A stretch of DNA of 64,000 bases, taken from positions 311,017 to 375,016 of the forward strand of contig CABUVL010000001.1 in the NCBI GenBank assembly GCA_902495005.1, written 5' to 3'. The DNA comes from an uncultured Verrucomicrobiota bacterium. GTDB taxonomy: Bacteria; Verrucomicrobiota; Verrucomicrobiia; Opitutales; UBA9783. Made by a program: the position numbers and the translations under genes. This document shows positions 1 to 43,450 of the stretch, one piece after another; the first letter of the stretch is position 1, and the number at the start of each line of letters is the position of its first letter. Under the pieces are notes generated by a model. The model worked only from the letters and a program-made list of their open reading frames with translations. It did no database searches and was not told where the DNA came from.

Positions 1-70
1 GGAAGGGGACTTGTTGACGCCATGTAAGTGCAGCAACGGAAATAAAAATACAAAAATGCTGAAAAATTTT

Positions 71-559
71 TTATTCATTGGTGCTTTCGTAGAAACTTAC
101 ATGCGCATTTTTCTTTATAATTATTTTGGCCCGTACATCGTTGTAATGTTTGCCTTCCCAGGTCCAATTTTCGCCAATAACGGTGTACCCCGGATTGGTA
201 ATTGTCAATAGGTCACGTCCGTGGGCTTTGTGTTCGGTGAGGGAAACAACTGCTTTTGGACTTCGTATGTCCATGTCAACAACGGTTTCGTCCTCAATAG
301 AAAAATACTCGATGTGCATTTTTTCTATTTTTATTTTTGTTTCTGACAAATAACGAACTTGATCGCCCAAGCATTGCCAAATTTTTTGTCCTTGCGGGTT
401 AAACATTGGCAAACGAAACCCTTGAATAGGCGTGTTGGCCTGTAGGCGAAATAATTCGCCTGAAACAATTTGAGCCGTATTCAATAAAATACATATACCC
501 AATTTATTCCAGGCTTGCAATCCCATTGTTGATATAACTCGCCTGAGGGAAAGAAACAT
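71..559 (-). CDS. hypothetical exported protein (possibly LptC/OstA-like beta-rich fold; function not established)
   Basis: 162-aa ORF starting 12 nt downstream of the pnp stop on the same strand. Hydrophobic N-terminal anchor (LGICILLNTAQIV) followed by beta-strand-like sequence. No diagnostic motif recognised. Confidence 0.5.
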   Translation of the reverse strand: MFLSLRRVISTMGLQAWNKLGICILLNTAQIVSGELFRLQANTPIQGFRLPMFNPQGQKIWQCLGDQVRYLSETKIKIEKMHIEYFSIEDETVVDMDIRSPKAVVSLTEHKAHGRDLLTITNPGYTVIGENWTWEGKHYNDVRAKIIIKKNAHVSFYESTNE

Positions 560-571
560 TACGCCTAATGT

Positions 572-2692
572 TTAATTAAGTGCTGCCTTTCGGCTTAAGC
601 GAACTTTACCACGTTCATCAATTCCAAGACAAACCACGATCATTTCGTCGCCTACGCTGCATACATCACTCGGGTGTTTTACCTTGCAGTCGGAAAGTTC
701 TGAAACGTGAACGAGGCCCTCTTTGCCCGGTAAGCATTCGACAAAGACACCAAAGTCCTTGATGGTTCGAACGATGCCTTTGTAGGTCTTGCCTTTTTCA
801 ATCTCTTGATCCAGAGAACGAATTTCGTCAACAACCTGCTTTAGCATTTTTTCGTCGCGTGCGTAAATGTTAACTTTGCCGGAATTGTCTTCGCAAATGT
901 CAATTTGACAACCTGTGGCCTCGGTTAAACGCTTAATATTTTTTCCTCCAGGACCAATCAGTGCGCCGATTTTTTCGGGATTGATTTGAATGGTTTGGAA
1001 ATGAGGCGCGTAAGCGCTGATGTTTTCACGCGGCTTATTAATGGTATCCTTGATCATCTTAAGAATACGCAGACGAGCCCTTCGATTTTGGTGAATGGCT
1101 TCGGCCATGATATTGAGTGGCAAGCCTGCAATCTTTAAATCTAATTGAAATCCCGTGATACCGCTTTCTGTACCGCAAATTTTAAAGTCCATGTCGCCGA
1201 AATGGTCTTCATCGGCCACAATATCGGTGATTAAACGATAACGTTCGATGGTATTGCCATTGCGTTCTGTGATGAGTCCGACCGAAATGCCGGCAACTGG
1301 AGCTATGATGGGGACACCTGCGTCCATTAACGCGAGCGTACCGCCGCAGACAGAGGCCATAGAGGTAGATCCGTTGGATCCCATGATGTCAGAAACCAAT
1401 CGAATAGAATAAGGGAATTCGGTTTCCGAAGGGATAATGGGCAACAAGGACCGTTCAGCCAAGGCACCGTGTCCGATTTCTCTGCGACTTATGAACCCAA
1501 AACGACCCACTTCACCTACGGAATAGGGTGGGAAGTTGTAATGGAGAATGAAAGATTTTGATTGAACGCCACCGGTGAGCCCATCTAAATCTTGGGCATC
1601 ACGATTTGAACCTAATGTGGCACTGACCAAAGCTTGGGTGTCTCCGCGTTGAAATAGGGCGGAACCGTGGACCACTTTAGGTAATACGTCTACGGCGCAG
1701 GAAATGGGCCTTATGTCTTCAACTTGACGGCCGTCGAGGCGAAGCGACTTGTCGAGGATAGCACTGCGGCATAAATCCTCCTGTACGGACTCAAATGCAA
1801 CGGCGATCTTATCCTTTGCCGTATCTTCGTTGTCAAATAGACCCTTGTCGAGGGCCTTTTGGACCAACTCTTTCTTTAATTCCTTTATCCCCGCTTGAGC
1901 CACTTGTTTAGGCGTGTTGTACCAGGCGGATTGTAATCGATCGCCCAATTCATCTTTGCAGAATTTGACGAGGTCTTCGGACGCCAAATAAGAGGTATAG
2001 TCTAATTTGTGTGGATTGACCTGACGTGCGAGTTCTTCTTGCGCGGCCAAGATAGGTTGGATTGCCTTTTGTGCAAAGTGAAGGGCCTCAATAAAGCGAT
2101 CTTCTGGCAATTGGTCTGCACATCCTTCAATCATCAAGGCGTCATTTTTATTGCCGACGTAAATGAGGTCTAAATCCGATTCGAATTGTTGATCGTTGCT
2201 CGGATTGATAATGAATTGATCATTGATTTGTCCAATGCGAACGCAGGCAATGGGGCCCATCCAAGGGATGTTGGAGCACATTAAGGCGGCCGAAGCGCCA
2301 TTGACCATCAGGACGTCTGGCTCGTTTTTGAGATCGGCGGACAGGAGCAAGCCTATAATTTGCACCTCATTTAAAAATCCTCTGGGGAATAGAGGGCGTA
2401 AGGGGCGATCGCACAGACGAGACGTTAAAATTTCTTTTTCCGTTGGCTTGCCTTCACGCTTTACATAACCTCCGGGGAAGCGTCCTGCGGCTGAAAACTT
2501 TTCACGATAATCAACGGTAAGTGGGAAGAAATCTTGATTTTCTCCGACTTCGGGAGCCATGGTTGCCGTAACCAAGACCATCGTTTGTCCCGATTGAACA
2601 ACGACAGCGCCGTTGGCCAATTTTGCAATGGCACCTGTAGAAAAACTTAAATCAAGGCCTTCAGCCTTGACGGAATATTTTTGTGATAACAT
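572..2692 (-). CDS. pnp: polyribonucleotide nucleotidyltransferase (PNPase)
   Basis: 706 aa with two RNase PH-like halves, then KH (GPGGKNIKRL) and S1 (GIVRTIKDFGVFVE) domains. Sits in the classical rpsO-pnp arrangement. Confidence 0.97.
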   Translation of the reverse strand: MLSQKYSVKAEGLDLSFSTGAIAKLANGAVVVQSGQTMVLVTATMAPEVGENQDFFPLTVDYREKFSAAGRFPGGYVKREGKPTEKEILTSRLCDRPLRPLFPRGFLNEVQIIGLLLSADLKNEPDVLMVNGASAALMCSNIPWMGPIACVRIGQINDQFIINPSNDQQFESDLDLIYVGNKNDALMIEGCADQLPEDRFIEALHFAQKAIQPILAAQEELARQVNPHKLDYTSYLASEDLVKFCKDELGDRLQSAWYNTPKQVAQAGIKELKKELVQKALDKGLFDNEDTAKDKIAVAFESVQEDLCRSAILDKSLRLDGRQVEDIRPISCAVDVLPKVVHGSALFQRGDTQALVSATLGSNRDAQDLDGLTGGVQSKSFILHYNFPPYSVGEVGRFGFISRREIGHGALAERSLLPIIPSETEFPYSIRLVSDIMGSNGSTSMASVCGGTLALMDAGVPIIAPVAGISVGLITERNGNTIERYRLITDIVADEDHFGDMDFKICGTESGITGFQLDLKIAGLPLNIMAEAIHQNRRARLRILKMIKDTINKPRENISAYAPHFQTIQINPEKIGALIGPGGKNIKRLTEATGCQIDICEDNSGKVNIYARDEKMLKQVVDEIRSLDQEIEKGKTYKGIVRTIKDFGVFVECLPGKEGLVHVSELSDCKVKHPSDVCSVGDEMIVVCLGIDERGKVRLSRKAALN

Positions 2693-25676: not shown

Positions 25677-25979
25677 TCAATGTACCTTAAACGTGTTGGG
25701 GCCTTGTGCGCCGGTGGTCTTAACGTAGGTGTTGGAAATGGGATCTCGCACGTATTTGCTAAAACCTTTTTGGGCAAGGCTTTTGTCGGAAAGTAATTGC
25801 TTCGTTTGGCCTTCCGAATACTTGTTGCAGATGTTGGGGACTGTGTACACGCGTTCGACGGGATAGCCGTACAGGGGGTCTACGGTTATTTTTTGATCGC
25901 AATGATGTTGTATTTCAATCACCGGGCAGGCCGCCTTGTCTTGCTCCGGAATGAGAACTCGATACAGATACCAAGGCAT
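25677..25979 (-). CDS. hypothetical protein
   Basis: 100-aa ORF. The MPWYLYRV start is reminiscent of FmdB-type zinc-ribbon proteins, but the Cys pairs are not conserved. No firm assignment. Confidence 0.45.
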   Translation of the reverse strand: MPWYLYRVLIPEQDKAACPVIEIQHHCDQKITVDPLYGYPVERVYTVPNICNKYSEGQTKQLLSDKSLAQKGFSKYVRDPISNTYVKTTGAQGPNTFKVH

Positions 25980-26018: not shown

Positions 26019-26357
26019 TTATTTTTGAGTGTTGTTCGGCGTGCTCTTGATGAGTAGCCTGTTGTTGATAGGCCAGATGCCGACAAGTTTGCCGTGCAAC
26101 GATTTTTCAAATGTGTTTTGTATCCCTTTGGGAAAATGATCCAGTGCCTCTTGAAATTTGGGCGGGGGTGTCAGTTGAGCAATTGTTTGATGGCTGTGTG
26201 ACTGTGAGAATGTTTCCCAATCGTCGGCGGGTTGACTTGGCTCTTCCGTGGGCTCCATCGGACTTGTCTCATCGACGGAGGGAATGGAGCTTAATGGCGG
26301 AGTTGACGTGGCCGCTGCGCGGGTGTGATCTTCTTCTTTAATCAGTCGTTTTTTTTT
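26019..26357 (-). CDS. dnaX: -1-frame continuation of dnaX (putative tau-type C-terminal extension, reachable only by frameshift, slippage or an indel)
   Basis: From the A9 run the -1 frame reads KRLIKEEDHTRAAATSTPPLSSIPSVDETSPMEPTEEPSQPADDWETF...NNTQK with no stop until TAA at 26019. The 79-aa ORF 26019..26258 in the track is only its ATG-delimited tail. Confidence 0.5.
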   Translation of the reverse strand, partial: KKKRLIKEEDHTRAAATSTPPLSSIPSVDETSPMEPTEEPSQPADDWETFSQSHSHQTIAQLTPPPKFQEALDHFPKGIQNTFEKSLHGKLVGIWPINNRLLIKSTPNNTQK

Positions 26358-27445
26358 ACGTCAGTGCTGGACTCATTTAAGAGTTTTAGCAGGGTTTCGA
26401 CGGAGTTCAATTTGACGCACTCTACCGCTTTAAAAATGATACTTTCCAGATTGCTGCGGATGGACAAGGCGTTTTGTAGGGATTCTTCGCCTCCTTTTAA
26501 CACATCTAAAATTTGCGTGTAGGCAAAGGGAGATAGGGGCCCGGCTTGCTTAAAACTTTGCGTAAAGCGTTCGTGAAAGCAGCGGTACAGGCTTTTGAGC
26601 GCGCGGTAAGAATCGTGCCCCTTGTTTATAATGGATTCGATAATGTTGAGTATTTGAGCATAATCACCCTTTTCGATGCTTGAGGCCAATGCTTGGATGG
26701 TTTCTAAGGGCGTTAATCCGTAAATAGACAGAACAGCCTCTTTCGTGAGGGGCCCATCACAAAATGCGATCGCTTGATCGAGAATGGATTGCGCATCTCG
26801 CATCCCGCCTTCAGCCAATTGAGCGATAATGGCAAGCGCCTCCTCTTCGGCGTTAATTTTTTCGACGTCCACGATGTGCCGCAAGTGCTTTTGAATAATT
26901 TCTGGACTTAAGGGGTAGAATTCGAAATGTTGGCAGCGAGATACGATAGTACTTGGAACCTTGTGTATTTCTGTGGTTGCAAAGATAAATTTTACGTGCG
27001 CCGGCGGCTCTTCGAGGGTTTTGAGCAATGCGTTGAAGGCGGCGGTGGACAGCATGTGGACTTCGTCCAATATATAAATTTTAAATGGACTTTCCGATGG
27101 AGAATATTGGCAGTTTTCGCGTAACGAACGGATTTGTTCGACGGAATTATTGGAGGCGCCGTCAATTTCAATTACGTCCAGGTTTTGTCCTTGAAAAATG
27201 GATGAGCACCGTGGGCTTTCGGGGTCAAAATCCACCCGCGGGCCATTTTCGCAATTGAGTGCCATGGCGAAGAGGCGGGCTGTACTCGTTTTGCCAGTCC
27301 CCTGAGGGCCTACGAATAGATAGGCGTGTGCAATGTGATTCGTTTGAATTGCGTTAGTAAGTGTCTTAACAATATTGTCTTGCCCCACCAAGGCTTGAAA
27401 TGTTTTTGGACGCCAACGTCTTGCAATGACCTGATAATTACTCAT
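26342..27445 (-). CDS. dnaX: DNA polymerase III subunit gamma/tau (zero-frame product, 367 aa)
   Basis: VGPQGTGKTSTARLFA Walker A, ILDEVHMLS Walker B and FIFATTEIHKVPSTIVSRCQ sensor/SRC motif. The length corresponds to clamp-loader domains I-III only. Confidence 0.93.
   Translation of the reverse strand: MSNYQVIARRWRPKTFQALVGQDNIVKTLTNAIQTNHIAHAYLFVGPQGTGKTSTARLFAMALNCENGPRVDFDPESPRCSSIFQGQNLDVIEIDGASNNSVEQIRSLRENCQYSPSESPFKIYILDEVHMLSTAAFNALLKTLEEPPAHVKFIFATTEIHKVPSTIVSRCQHFEFYPLSPEIIQKHLRHIVDVEKINAEEEALAIIAQLAEGGMRDAQSILDQAIAFCDGPLTKEAVLSIYGLTPLETIQALASSIEKGDYAQILNIIESIINKGHDSYRALKSLYRCFHERFTQSFKQAGPLSPFAYTQILDVLKGGEESLQNALSIRSNLESIIFKAVECVKLNSVETLLKLLNESSTDVKKND
26349..26357 (-). promoter_or_regulatory. 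A9 homopolymer (candidate slippery/slippage site) 5 nt upstream of the dnaX zero-frame stop
   Basis: The minus strand reads GTA AAA AAA AAC GAC TGA. There are nine consecutive A (nine T on the plus strand, 26349..26357). Confidence 0.5.
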
Positions 27446-27580
27446 CTCACTTTAGTGAAATTGAAAATGAAACTTTTGCAACTCAAAATGTGCGTTGCTT
27501 CTTTCAAAGCTATTGTGAAAGGAGAACGATAGAACACATTACTATTAGAAATATATTTTAAGGACCTAATGGAAATGCTC

Positions 27581-27620
27581 AAAAACAGAAGAAGAGGGGA
27601 ACTGTGCCCCTCTTCTTCTT
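27581..27620 (-). terminator. rho-independent terminator downstream of hpf
   Basis: 13-bp stem AGAAGAAGAGGGG/CCCCTCTTCTTCT (27587..27619). On the minus strand it is followed by GTTTTTGAG. It lies about 16 nt after the hpf stop. Confidence 0.8.
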
Positions 27621-27635
27621 TATCTTAGTGAAAGT

Positions 27636-27968
27636 TTATTGTTTTATTGTTTGCTTGCGTTTTACTTTGAGTAAACGGGAGCGACGTCGGATTTTCCGTT
27701 GCAATTTGTCGACCAAGATGTCGATAGATTTGTACAAGTTTTCCGAATACGTCGCGACCACCAAGTCGGGCCCGTGAATTTGTATGTGGCCCTTGGCGAT
27801 GAACTCACCGTGATCCTTACGACTTGCGTCTTGAATCAGCTCAACACGTATGCGGACAATGGACGGTTCATGTTTGAATAATTTTGAAACTTTTTCAGTT
27901 ACAACATTTTTTATGGCATCTGTTAATGTCAAATGCACCCCTGTAATGATAATAGCTGATTCATTCAT
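27636..27968 (-). CDS. hpf: ribosome hibernation promoting factor / RaiA family (short form)
   Basis: 110 aa. IIITGVHLTLTDAIKNVVTEKVSKL..., then LYKSIDILVDKLQRKIRR, typical of the sigma-54 modulation protein/S30EA family. Confidence 0.88.
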   Translation of the reverse strand: MNESAIIITGVHLTLTDAIKNVVTEKVSKLFKHEPSIVRIRVELIQDASRKDHGEFIAKGHIQIHGPDLVVATYSENLYKSIDILVDKLQRKIRRRSRLLKVKRKQTIKQ

Positions 27969-39844: not shown

Positions 39845-40927
39845 TTAAGAACGTTTAAGGTTGACGACTTCATTCAGAATTTCATCGGAGATGGTGATGA
39901 CACGCGCAGAGGCTTGGAATCCACGTTGCAGGGTGATCATATCTGAGAACTGCTTGGTAATGTCGACGTTGGCCATTTCCAAGGTCTTAGAACGTAAGTA
40001 CGTGTTGGTAATGCCGAATGATGTGTACGAAGTTCCGGCCGCTTCCATACCCGTGTACAAACCGTCACCTTCGTACAATAGCGCTTGTGCATCATCCACG
40101 CACGCCAATATCAACTTGCCGCCAATGACGTCCGTGCTGTTTTGATCGTTGAAAATGTAGTGGATTTCTCCCGTCGTAGAAAAACTGAAGCTGTTGATGA
40201 TGGGTGCCTTGGCGATGATATCGGCATGGTTGATTGTGTTGGCAGTTATAGCCGTTTGTGCGCTTTGACTGAGGTACAATTTTCCGCCTGTAATGTTTTT
40301 CTCGTTGCTATTATAATTATCCTCATCATTGTATGTGGCGTCTATATCTCCTTCAGCGTAATTAAATTGGATGCGCAAGTCGTCTTCGGTACCTTGGTTT
40401 TTGGGCTGATTAACTTCAATATTTTTAAATGTAATTCCTTTTTCTGCATCGTAATCGACGCGAAAGGCGGGCATATGTGTACTATCCATCTGCGTGCCCT
40501 GCAAACGGTATCCTTGTTGGTAGGTTACGAGGTAGTTGCGGCTGTCTTTCCGGAAATTACCGGCACGAGTTAGATAAGGGGTATTGCTGGTAGTGTCGAG
40601 TACTTTGAAAAAACCGCTGCCAACGATGGCCAGATCCGTTTCTTGTTCCGTTCGTTCCAGGGCGCCTTGTGAAAAACTTGTGACTGTACCGTCTACCTGC
40701 ATGCCGTTACCGACTTGCATGGCAACGGTGTTGGACCCATATTCAACTTCTTCATTGGCGGGCGCAGAGCGTTGTAAAATGGTGCTGAATGAAGACAAGT
40801 AATTCATTTTGGAGGACTTAAATCCAATGCTGTTGACGTTACTGATGTTATTGCTGACAACGTCGAAACCTTGCTTAAATCCATCCATTGCGCTGAAAGC
40901 GTTGTTCATTGCGTTAATGAGAGCCAT
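39845..40927 (-). CDS. flgE: flagellar hook protein FlgE
   Basis: N-terminal rod/hook motif (FDVVSNNISNVNSIGFK) and C-terminal LEMANVDITKQFSDMITLQRGFQASARVIT. Lies immediately after flgD. Confidence 0.88.
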   Translation of the reverse strand: MALINAMNNAFSAMDGFKQGFDVVSNNISNVNSIGFKSSKMNYLSSFSTILQRSAPANEEVEYGSNTVAMQVGNGMQVDGTVTSFSQGALERTEQETDLAIVGSGFFKVLDTTSNTPYLTRAGNFRKDSRNYLVTYQQGYRLQGTQMDSTHMPAFRVDYDAEKGITFKNIEVNQPKNQGTEDDLRIQFNYAEGDIDATYNDEDNYNSNEKNITGGKLYLSQSAQTAITANTINHADIIAKAPIINSFSFSTTGEIHYIFNDQNSTDVIGGKLILACVDDAQALLYEGDGLYTGMEAAGTSYTSFGITNTYLRSKTLEMANVDITKQFSDMITLQRGFQASARVITISDEILNEVVNLKRS

Positions 40928-40933
40928 AATTCC

Positions 40934-41554
40934 TTATGCGTTGTTGGTTAAATGTATTTCTTGAATAAATTGAGGATCGTAGGATTCATTGCCAATTTGT
41001 ACCTTGCATTGGGCCGTATTGGGATTCAAAATTGCGGTGACTTTACCCGAAAATGGCGTGGAATCTTGCAGTCTTCCGACCACCATTTTACCGAGGTAAT
41101 CCGTAAAATTAGATGGGGATGAGTTGTGTGAAGATAAGACACTGATTACGTCCGAAGCCTGAAAAGATTTACCGTTGATGGAAATAGTGCAGTTGGCTTC
41201 GCCTATGTTTTGAACAGCGTCGACGACCCCTTGAACGGTTTGAGATTGTCCTCGGTCATCGATGCTTTGGACAATTACCTCTTTGCCCAGGTAGCTTTCA
41301 CCTAAGTGACTGTTTTGAGCCTTGGTAAACAAATCTAACGATTCGGACAAGCGGGCGGACGTCAATGAATTGATTTGCCCCATCATTTCGGCGCTTCCCA
41401 TGGGCTCTAAGGGGTTTTGATTTTTCAATTGGCAGACAAGTAATTGCATAAAATCTTCCCCTTTGAGAGAACGATCTTGATGGCTTGTTATGAGTTCATC
41501 GCCGACGGTGTAACTACTTGAAAGTTGATTAAATGTGACACTCGGTAGAGGCAT
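40934..41554 (-). CDS. flgD: flagellar hook assembly (capping) protein FlgD
   Basis: KGEDFMQLLVCQLKNQNPLEPMGSAEMMGQINSL is the FlgD N-terminal signature. 206 aa. Confidence 0.9.
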   Translation of the reverse strand: MPLPSVTFNQLSSSYTVGDELITSHQDRSLKGEDFMQLLVCQLKNQNPLEPMGSAEMMGQINSLTSARLSESLDLFTKAQNSHLGESYLGKEVIVQSIDDRGQSQTVQGVVDAVQNIGEANCTISINGKSFQASDVISVLSSHNSSPSNFTDYLGKMVVGRLQDSTPFSGKVTAILNPNTAQCKVQIGNESYDPQFIQEIHLTNNA

Positions 41555-41567
41555 AGCTTTCTTGGGG

Positions 41568-42839
41568 TTAAAAAAAGTATGGGTTTGAGAGTTGCAAATT
41601 CATTTTGGCCGCTTCTGATCTTAGCCAATGCCATTGGTTTTTGAGGGACGTTTGTAGCTTTTGATCGGTGGATGAGAAGTACACGGTTAAGAATGACTTT
41701 GATAAGCTAAGTCTGCAATGGAGTGTGTCGCCGTTAGCAAGATCTATTTTTAGAGGAATGGCGTTCTTCTTGTTGCGCTTGAGGTCTTCGGCGGCTTGTA
41801 AGATGACGGACATAGCTTTCGATATAAGGGAGTTCTTCGTGGGCCCGAGCAATGAGGGAAGGTGTAGCTGTGCCTGTTTCTTGAGGGGATGAATGGCATT
41901 TTGTATGAGGGAATTTGCTTGAGCTGTGTCATGCAAAAATGGATTGCGCGGGGTTGTATGAGCTAATGGAGATTCAATTGCTTGAGCGGTAGGAGTTCTT
42001 GAGGTACTTGTAAAGGTCGTATTGTTCATTCGCTTGCTAAATAGACTTTGTGAAGAAGGAGCATTTTTAGTGCCAAATGCGTTGTCTTTAGGCCAAGCTT
42101 TATGGTTTGCTAGATAAGTACTCATGGTTTCCTTCGTTTGAGGTACTTGTAATAATGGCAGATACTGAATGATCTGTGAGTGCCGTACATGTGATTGCAA
42201 TGGCAGATGGATTGAATGGCTTTGTCCGTTGTGTAGATGCGGTAATGTGACTTGATTGACCGCTGAAGTCGTTTCACTTGCAGGTAAAAAGCTTGTGGAT
42301 CGCTGTACGCTTTCAGTTTGATTTGGTAACAGCGGTTCCTTTAAAGTGGACTCTTGTTCGGTTAACTCAGAAGTGTTTTTTAATGCCTGTTGGGGATTAT
42401 TATGCTGGGTGAGTGTTTGGGCCTGTATAGGACCGTGATTTGTGGGTTCTTTGGCGGGTGTTGCAGTTGAATTGAGAAGTGATGGTGTGGCGATGAATAA
42501 GTTGTCTGGAAGCTCATGATTGTCGGATTCATCTGGTAAAAGAGATTGTGTGGACGCTGATTCTATGAGTGTGAGGGGTTCGTCGAGGTCGTCGGAATCG
42601 TCAGTGCCCTCGGAAGCATCAGATTCGATAATTTCAACGAGGGCGCCATCAATATCTACTTTTTTAGGCAGATCATCGGAGTTTTGTGGGTAAGGGTTAA
42701 CGAGCAATTCACACAAGTTTTCCTCAAAATACTTCTTGGGCGCTGGCTTGGCATCTGCTTTGGGTTTATCGACAGTTGAATTATTGTCGCATTCCTGAAC
42801 GATGGGGCTGCAAGTACAATCGGAAATATTTTGGCTCAT
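41568..42839 (-). CDS. fliK: flagellar hook-length control protein FliK-like
   Basis: 423 aa. Long low-complexity S/T/P/Q/D-rich N-terminal region. C-terminal Flg_hook-like block (PLKIDLANGDTLHCRLSLSKSFLTVYFSSTDQKLQTSLKNQWHWLRSEAAKMNLQL). Position between the ylxF-like gene and flgD. Confidence 0.7.
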   Translation of the reverse strand: MSQNISDCTCSPIVQECDNNSTVDKPKADAKPAPKKYFEENLCELLVNPYPQNSDDLPKKVDIDGALVEIIESDASEGTDDSDDLDEPLTLIESASTQSLLPDESDNHELPDNLFIATPSLLNSTATPAKEPTNHGPIQAQTLTQHNNPQQALKNTSELTEQESTLKEPLLPNQTESVQRSTSFLPASETTSAVNQVTLPHLHNGQSHSIHLPLQSHVRHSQIIQYLPLLQVPQTKETMSTYLANHKAWPKDNAFGTKNAPSSQSLFSKRMNNTTFTSTSRTPTAQAIESPLAHTTPRNPFLHDTAQANSLIQNAIHPLKKQAQLHLPSLLGPTKNSLISKAMSVILQAAEDLKRNKKNAIPLKIDLANGDTLHCRLSLSKSFLTVYFSSTDQKLQTSLKNQWHWLRSEAAKMNLQLSNPYFF

Positions 42840-43450
42840 TTTTGTGATAATTCGTTGGTGCTTAGTCGAAAATTTTCGATTAATTGGTTTAATTTTTTGT
42901 GGTACGTTTTGTTATCTGTGGGGCGGGACATGCTTTGTAAAATGGGGCCCAAGGTGTCTGGAGATAAGAAGTGCATTATTTTTACGACGGAAGAAGTTTC
43001 CATCTCGTTAAAGACTCGAACGACCGAGTCGGGCGTCATATTCGAGTAGGTTGCAGCCAGTGTTTTGAGATTTTTTAATTCAGCTTCATGTAAGTACGTT
43101 ACGGATTGTGTGAGCTGTTTTTGTAAATGTTCGATATCTTTTTTTAAGTCATTTAGGGCCTGACGTTCTGTACGAATTTGTTCCTGCATGGCCTGTAATT
43201 CTTGTTCTTTTTGTGCCTGTTCTTTTGCGGTTTTATCGACTGCACTCAATAGGGCAGAAAAGTCTTTTACTTGCCTTTCCCACAGCGGTAATTGGGGCTC
43301 CTGAGTTTCATTTTGTCGATTTGTAAAGGAGGCTTTTAAGTGGGTGATGGCTTGCGTGGTACACGTGTTAATTCTTTTCCATAAATAAAAATTTTGGATG
43401 CCAAAATACAGCAACAATGCGCTCAAAAAACTCAGCCAATAACGTACCAT
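42836..43450 (-). CDS. flagellar operon protein, YlxF/MotE/FlbB-like (MgtE-N-like helical repeat)
   Basis: N-terminal TM, a coiled coil, then LKTLAATYSNMTPDSVVRVFNEMETSSVVKIMHFLSPDTLGPILQSM, matching the M-x-P-x2-(A/V)...repeat of MotE/YlxF. Same position as ylxF in the Bacillus fla/che operon. Confidence 0.55.
   Translation of the reverse strand: MVRYWLSFLSALLLYFGIQNFYLWKRINTCTTQAITHLKASFTNRQNETQEPQLPLWERQVKDFSALLSAVDKTAKEQAQKEQELQAMQEQIRTERQALNDLKKDIEHLQKQLTQSVTYLHEAELKNLKTLAATYSNMTPDSVVRVFNEMETSSVVKIMHFLSPDTLGPILQSMSRPTDNKTYHKKLNQLIENFRLSTNELSQK

Follow-up and report, generated by a model that had tools for sequence, protein, structure and literature searches.

The dnaX gene and its downstream frame

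The window analysed here was a stretch of 64,000 nucleotides (nt) of contig CABUVL010000001.1 from an uncultured Verrucomicrobiota bacterium, and all positions are given in window numbering. On its minus strand lies dnaX, with its ATG at 27445 and a zero-frame coding part (27445..26345) of 367 amino acids (aa); including the TGA stop (26342..26344), the open reading frame (ORF) covers 26342..27445 (minus strand). The 3′ end of the zero frame reads ...ACT GAC GTA AAA AAA AAC GAC TGA and contains a run of exactly nine A (T9 on the plus strand) at 26349..26357 on the minus strand, the proposed slippage or shift site, which is read in this frame as GT[A AAA AAA AA]C. The stop follows 4 nt past the run and ends the gamma-like product. 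The +1 frame was closed after 3 codons. The -1 frame opens just 3 nt upstream of the run and reads KRLIKEEDHTRAAATS...NNTQK, stop-free for 109 codons past the run until a TAA at 26021..26019; this extension (109 codons plus TAA, 26019..26348, minus strand) would be reached from A10 or A7 transcripts or by a -1 ribosomal shift. From base composition, the probability of a frame remaining open for 109 codons was about 0.002, which makes chance an unlikely explanation.

The junction of the fused product reads ..STDVKKKRLIKEEDH.., and re-reading of one base or addition of one A gives ..VKKKRLIKEEDHTRAAATS..; the junction peptide expected of the recoded product is VKKKRLIKEEDHTR, also given as ..STDVKKKRLIKEEDHTR... 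A first-pass annotation of this stretch had described the zero-frame end, the 367-aa size, the A9 run at 26357..26349, the -1 frame without a stop until 26019, and a 79-aa ORF (26019..26258) as the ATG-delimited tail of that frame, all of which were confirmed on the sequence. Its length of about 477 aa for the long product was corrected to 475 aa with one A added and 474 aa with two A's removed.

The N-terminal ORF reads unambiguously as DnaX, the gamma/tau subunit of DNA polymerase III, an assignment drawn from the ORF list and translation and from TIGR02397, NF004046 and Pfam. The match to TIGR02397 (dnaX_nterm) had an E-value of 4.5e-122 at 407.7 bits (cut-off 250) and that to NF004046 reached 417.9 bits (cut-off 400). 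Pfam recognised DNA_pol3_delta2, DNAX_ATPase_lid and AAA in the 367-aa product, and the DNA_pol3_gamma3 match was sub-threshold at 21.6 bits (cut-off 24.4). By alignment the product was collinear with E. coli gamma/tau (window residues 3–276 corresponding to E. coli 2–275) and in length it is close to the crystallised constructs of domains I–III (368–376 aa), in agreement with the earlier view that the 367-aa protein is a gamma-like product comprising clamp-loader domains I–III. Apart from the dnaX tract, no A/T run in the 64-kb window reached a length of 9, and the counts of homopolymer runs there dropped faster than geometrically beyond length 7. Selection against runs of 9 or more has been reported (PMC1088944).

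The extension was divided into a Pro/Ser/Glu-rich, variable linker (26172..26348, minus strand) and a conserved C-terminal motif, TPPPKFQEALDHFPKGIQNTFEKSLHGKLVGIWPI (26067..26171, minus strand). The linker is poorly conserved and of varied length in relatives, with length differences that never break the frame, and the motif corresponds to the C-terminal end of the full-length DnaX of relatives. The last approximately 35 codons carry TPPPxF...LHGKxVGIWPI, with 11 invariant columns across 8 lineages. When the C-terminal motifs of the two relatives L001 and L002 were compared, 1, 1 and 8 differences were counted at codon positions 1, 2 and 3, and the changed codons comprised 8 synonymous and 1 non-synonymous; codon position 2 was the least variable in all lineage pairs except one. 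Such a codon pattern is the mark of purifying selection acting on the -1 frame.

A profile of the C-terminal part was compared with the C-termini of single-ORF DnaX proteins from related Opitutae, giving an hhalign probability of 95.7% (E 9.3e-9, 48 columns), and the homology was also visible in a full-length MAFFT alignment. A 70-aa window fragment was broken up when aligned to full-length proteins with MAFFT, and the last 40 residues alone aligned sensibly. Pfam returned no family over residues 368–475, even at E up to 1, and the motif profile gave nothing significant against the PDB (best E 0.43); the NCBIfam matches listed were dnaX models, and the listed alignments end by residue 414. An assignment of the extension to domains IV/V of E. 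coli tau was considered and rejected, there being neither a Pfam match nor a PDB sequence match by profile, and the extension resembles the verrucomicrobial DnaX C-terminus only. AlphaFold2 modelling of the 62-residue C-terminus of single-ORF relatives yielded two short helices (predicted local distance difference test score, pLDDT, 80.6), too small for a meaningful fold search. Presumably the motif is the end by which tau tethers the polymerase, a role that is assigned from its position only, since Pfam and the PDB offered no match. With the 109-aa extension as query, 21 proteins (P0121–P0141) were retrieved from 1.84 billion representatives. Most were orphans of 65–196 aa matching at their C-terminal ends, and they resemble the tails of dnaX genes that are split in other genomes and were wrongly called as separate proteins.

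Conservation of the tract and of the frame break

The nearest genomes were metagenome-assembled genomes (MAGs) of uncultured Puniceicoccales/Opitutales (Verrucomicrobiota). Puniceicoccales, the order to which the two nearest relatives of the window are assigned, has Coraliomargarita akajimensis as a cultured member. A contig scan with the whole fused protein gave 5 useful loci out of 80, the rest being unrelated dnaX genes that matched through the pattern YILDEVHM, and a metagenome scan with the C-terminal patterns gave 8 loci. For orthologues the first-pass annotation had envisaged either single long ORFs or a shared A run with a frame break; both were found among the relatives.

Including the window, 13 lineages were gamma-default, the 12 others at about 53–75% protein identity to it. 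In each of them the zero frame stops 1–7 codons past the run and the C-terminal part lies in the -1 frame (13/13), which is stop-free and without frame-breaking indels over 109–154 codons. The run is A9 in the window, L001–L004 and L085–L087, and A10 in L008, L099/100, L101, L102 and L103. The dnaX stop of L001 and L002 (about 75% identity), L003, L004 (66%), L085–L087 and L008 (57%) is located 2–7 codons past the run, with the -1 frame open for 125–145 codons more, and the same split layout with A10 was seen in L099/100, L101, L102 and L103 (53–56% identity). The earlier annotation had held that a downstream frame not conserved in relatives, together with the absence of any product longer than 367 aa, would argue against expression; the -1 frame proved to be conserved.

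At the homologous position, A9 or A10 was present in 18 further lineages besides the window, and the run was never shorter than 9 in the 19 lineages with DNA examined. It begins at codon position 1, 2 or 3, depending on the lineage, and the flanking nucleotides are not conserved. Of the nearest 120 protein clusters, 66 terminate no more than 7 residues from a KK/KKK run at this position and 50 read through it. In the single-ORF relatives L093, L095/96, L097/98 and L088–91, an internal KKK is encoded by an uninterrupted A9 or A10, and stops occur in both alternative frames within 1–10 codons. These comparisons point to an A tract that is older than the frame break. In L099 dnaX the A10 is uninterrupted although the upstream lysine codons are 2 AAA to 15 AAG, and its retention against this AAG usage (15/17) indicates that the homopolymer itself is under selection.

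Both states occur at close distance. L092 (JGI Ga0256870_1031386) has A10 and a single 511-aa dnaX ORF (P0005) and is 94.75% identical to L087 (Ga0256405_10049287), which has A9 and is split; either the polarity has genuinely flipped between relatives at near-species distance, or the short contig contains an error. Across 119 clusters, a rough neighbour-joining/Fitch reconstruction required at least 11 changes between the split and the single-ORF state, a count that is indicative only because some states are possibly assembly errors and the tree is crude.

Proposed routes to a long product

The locus is probably a programmed recoding site with reversed polarity, working most likely via transcriptional slippage on the A9 tract. 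The reversal had been proposed in the first-pass annotation (zero frame giving the gamma-like, recoding the tau-like product) and gains support from the comparative evidence. From the sequence comparisons we infer that the long product is actually made, and the route to it is probably slippage rather than ribosomal frameshifting. In this mechanism the zero frame, stopping 2 codons past A9, would give the 367-aa gamma-like clamp-loader subunit (domains I–III), and a fraction of expression would enter the -1 frame and give a 475-aa tau-like subunit with linker and conserved C-terminal motif. RNA polymerase would copy the T9 template reiteratively, with mainly one A inserted. Transcripts with A10 (also A13 or A7) would bring both parts into one frame for a tau of 474–475 aa, those with A9 or A12 would encode gamma (367–368 aa), and those with A8 or A11 a gamma-like product of 368–369 aa with a 3-residue alternative tail, ..TTD. 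mRNAs carrying extra nucleotides, up to 6, are reported in PMC5009743.

The same long protein could arise by -1 programmed ribosomal frameshifting on A_AAA_AAA or A_AAA_AAC in a homogeneous A9 mRNA, as in E. coli but with the outcome reversed; this is the main rival account, which we consider unlikely. Seven A's suffice for ribosomal frameshifting, yet the run is never below 9 in 19 of 19 lineages and persists despite codon bias; all three codon phases are represented, and neither a downstream structure beyond shuffled controls nor a conserved Shine–Dalgarno (SD)-like element upstream was detected, all of which favours slippage. The 89 nt past the run in the window fold at -11.5 kcal/mol, compared with a shuffled mean of -13.8 (z +0.87), and the relatives among the five lineages folded gave z from -1.43 to +1.09 with no shared fold. 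Inspection by eye of the 40 nt upstream at 15 loci revealed no SD-like stimulator (GGAGG/AGGAG-like) at a conserved distance. The tract of the single-ORF relatives, flanked by stops in both other frames, also argues for slippage, since that layout is sensible only if +1 and -1 products both arise. Several observations weigh against the slippage account. In-phase X_XXY_YYZ heptamers are present within the run in the window (A_AAA_AAA and A_AAA_AAC) and in every relative, irrespective of the run's codon phase, with A_AAA_AAG in L008 and L099, and -1 ribosomal frameshifting could contribute or dominate. E. coli-like stimulators are described for some reversed dnaX genes, e.g. that of Chlorobium phaeobacteroides, which has only A7 (PMC5009743). 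All 13 gamma-default breaks require the -1 direction, which by the criterion of Antonov et al. (Antonov, Coakley, Atkins, Baranov, Borodovsky 2013, NAR 41:6514; PMC3711429) favours ribosomal frameshifting; slippage that mainly inserts bases would predict an exclusively -1 direction equally well. Furthermore, the C-terminal motif lacks a Pfam or PDB sequence match.

Explanations without any recoding were weighed against the same data. Translation of the extension as a free C-terminal protein, by re-initiation past the gamma stop or from the ATG at 26258, is very unlikely: the window does have this ATG (79-aa ORF), L003 has a TTG overlapping the stop, and gene callers elsewhere have produced the 65–196-aa orphans that match the extension at their C-terminal ends, but no start codon is conserved and the extensions of L001 and L003 are without any Met, which argues against independent initiation. 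Moreover, in no lineage does a stop separate the -1 frame from the A run (the frame opens between 2 nt inside the run and 60 nt ahead of it), conservation of the tract would be left unexplained, and a detached polymerase-tethering motif would, given the established function of tau, lose the point of that subunit. A truncated gene whose C-terminal part is a decaying remnant, with the 367-aa protein as sole product, would fit the public annotation of the locus, in which the 367-aa ORF stands alone and 26019..26341 is left empty (two assemblies); the intact -1 frame of all 13 lineages, its codon pattern of purifying selection and the reported essentiality of the polymerase-binding end of tau in the bacteria studied render this highly improbable. 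Least credible of all is a sequencing or assembly artefact, in which the genome would really contain A10 and a single long dnaX of the usual kind. Some platforms are prone to errors in homopolymers, and L092, the close relative of the L087 lineage, reads A10 and fused on a 2.2-kb contig. However, A9 and its flanks were identical in four independent assemblies with MEGAHIT/SPAdes-style contig names (the NCBI MAG GCA_964316805.1, the Logan assembly of ERR4335225 and two ENA assemblies), the break is shared by 12 further lineages and by 66 of the 120 nearest protein clusters, and a stop 1–7 codons past the run in every lineage is not expected from a systematic undercall. The homopolymer undercall, named as the trivial alternative in the first-pass annotation, was rejected on the four A9 assemblies and the conserved break. 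The exact 367-aa protein was indexed in 80 blocks of the public collection.

Beyond slippage during transcription, it is conceivable, if rather doubtful, that the A tract doubles as a heritable toggle, in which replication slippage between A9 and A10 flips the default product. Lineages, or cells within a population, may then shift the tau:gamma ratio with both products still made. Hints in this direction are the A10 fused L092 beside the A9 split L087, the at least 11 polarity changes and the presence of the tract in both states.

Annotation, neighbouring genes and comparison with known systems

Tau is the link between the clamp loader and the replicative polymerase. In the window lineage tau would be obtainable only by non-standard decoding, and an essential replisome would thus depend on a programmed "error". 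Public annotation here has a truncated dnaX, with 26019..26341 unannotated or filled with spurious small ORFs, so that pipelines may overlook tau and rate dnaX as a truncated gene. This mis-annotation extends to many Opitutales/Puniceicoccales genomes. A 76-aa ORF antisense to the tau extension (26111..26341, plus strand; 2605..2835 in L082) was called as a gene in one public assembly; this call is probably false and due to the -1 extension having been left unannotated. With both polarities of the A-tract device side by side, the group would lend itself well, as a natural series, to tests of what sets the tau:gamma ratio. The main value of the locus lies in annotation and in this series for experiments, the principle itself having been published already.

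On the minus strand, no terminator-like site was found between 26342 and 26019. A 100-aa ORF (MPWYLYRVLIPEQDKAACPVIEIQHHCDQKITVDP...) at 25677..25979 (minus strand), without a Pfam match on record, starts 40 nt past the stop of the tau extension and has a counterpart right behind dnaX in L001 and L002 (MPWYLYRVLLPN...). In many bacteria ybaB/recR commonly sit behind dnaX, i.e. at the place of this ORF, and a YbaB-like ORF was found behind dnaX in the Kiritimatiellae locus L007. Upstream, a 13-bp perfect hairpin at 27587..27619 (both strands), AGAAGAAGAGGGG...CCCCTCTTCTTCT, is located between an hpf-like gene (27636..27968) and dnaX; it scores as a terminator on either strand, and a promoter-like site for dnaX comes next at 27582..27555. 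In the GC-richer relative L099/L100, a reverse-transcriptase gene (RVT_1) at 1..849 lies directly upstream of the split dnaX. The window was also screened for other homopolymer-linked frame breaks, in which a long ORF stops and another frame goes on, and the only candidate, at 41570, was rejected as an ordinary gene junction. There, a T7 run (41570..41576, minus strand) coincides with the stop of a 423-aa ORF, which is followed by ORFs of 206 and 360 aa (genes 39845..43450, minus strand); judged by eye only, these ORFs are flagellar-hook-like (FliK-like, FlgD, FlgE).

In E. coli dnaX, a -1 frameshift at A_AAA_AAG, with an upstream SD sequence and a downstream stem-loop, makes gamma. The window shares with it the gene, the boundary after domain III, a lysine-codon slippery sequence, the -1 direction and in-phase X_XXY_YYZ heptamers (GT[A_AAA_AAA]AC and A_AAA_AAC in the zero frame). 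It differs in that the outcome is reversed, no SD-like or stem-loop stimulator was detected, the run has 9 rather than 7 A's, and domains IV/V of E. coli tau are not recognisable in the extension.

In Thermus thermophilus dnaX, slippage of RNA polymerase on A9 at the gamma/tau boundary is expected to give a mixed mRNA population (Larsen et al. 2000, PNAS 97:1683, summarised in PMC1088944). A homopolymeric A run of about 9 or more at this boundary is common to Thermus, the window and the 18 other lineages, and the single-ORF relatives L093, L095–98 and L088–91 share the Thermus layout, with tau in the DNA frame and stops near in both other frames. The DNA frame of Thermus is that of tau, with gamma produced by slippage, whereas in the window the DNA frame encodes gamma and slippage would be needed for tau; slippage has been demonstrated experimentally in Thermus, whereas in the window it is proposed from the sequence. 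In Shigella flexneri mxiE, transcriptional slippage at a run of T links two overlapping ORFs (cited in PMC1088944). As proposed for the window, slippage is required there for the longer product fused from two ORFs, but the genes are unrelated, and the role of mxiE is regulatory, that of dnaX stoichiometric.

The closest counterparts are the reversed two-ORF dnaX genes described by Antonov et al. in 17 genes from 12 genera, of which 12 have poly-A runs of 7–10 (9 cases with A10). Supplementary Figure S3 of PMC3711429 includes Chlorobi, Flavobacterium, Cytophaga, Capnocytophaga and Coraliomargarita akajimensis, the set being mostly Chlorobi and Bacteroidetes. The passages of that paper on dnaX propose transcriptional realignment as the mechanism and contain no experimental demonstration of the long product; the reversed arrangement is also covered in the 2016 review by Atkins et al. 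(PMC5009743). Within the library searched, no experimental test of the reversed arrangement and no Verrucomicrobia-specific report came up beyond these two papers. Like the published genes, the window has two adjacent ORFs, a poly-A junction (7–10) at the domain III boundary, a stop directly after it and a -1 requirement for tau; the downstream -1 ORF encodes the rest of tau, being homologous to single-ORF DnaX C-termini, and the position and direction of the break are conserved (13 lineages at 53–100% protein identity, all -1). Unlike the published set, the window lineage and its nearest clade have A9, as against A10 in 9 published cases, and the organism of the window belongs to an uncultured MAG lineage outside that set. 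The reversed layout, in which tau needs recoding, was thus already published in 2013, and the window is a further case. What appears to be new here is the breadth of the arrangement in Opitutae, where, as the comparisons suggest, single-ORF and two-ORF states alternate within the group with the tract retained in both.

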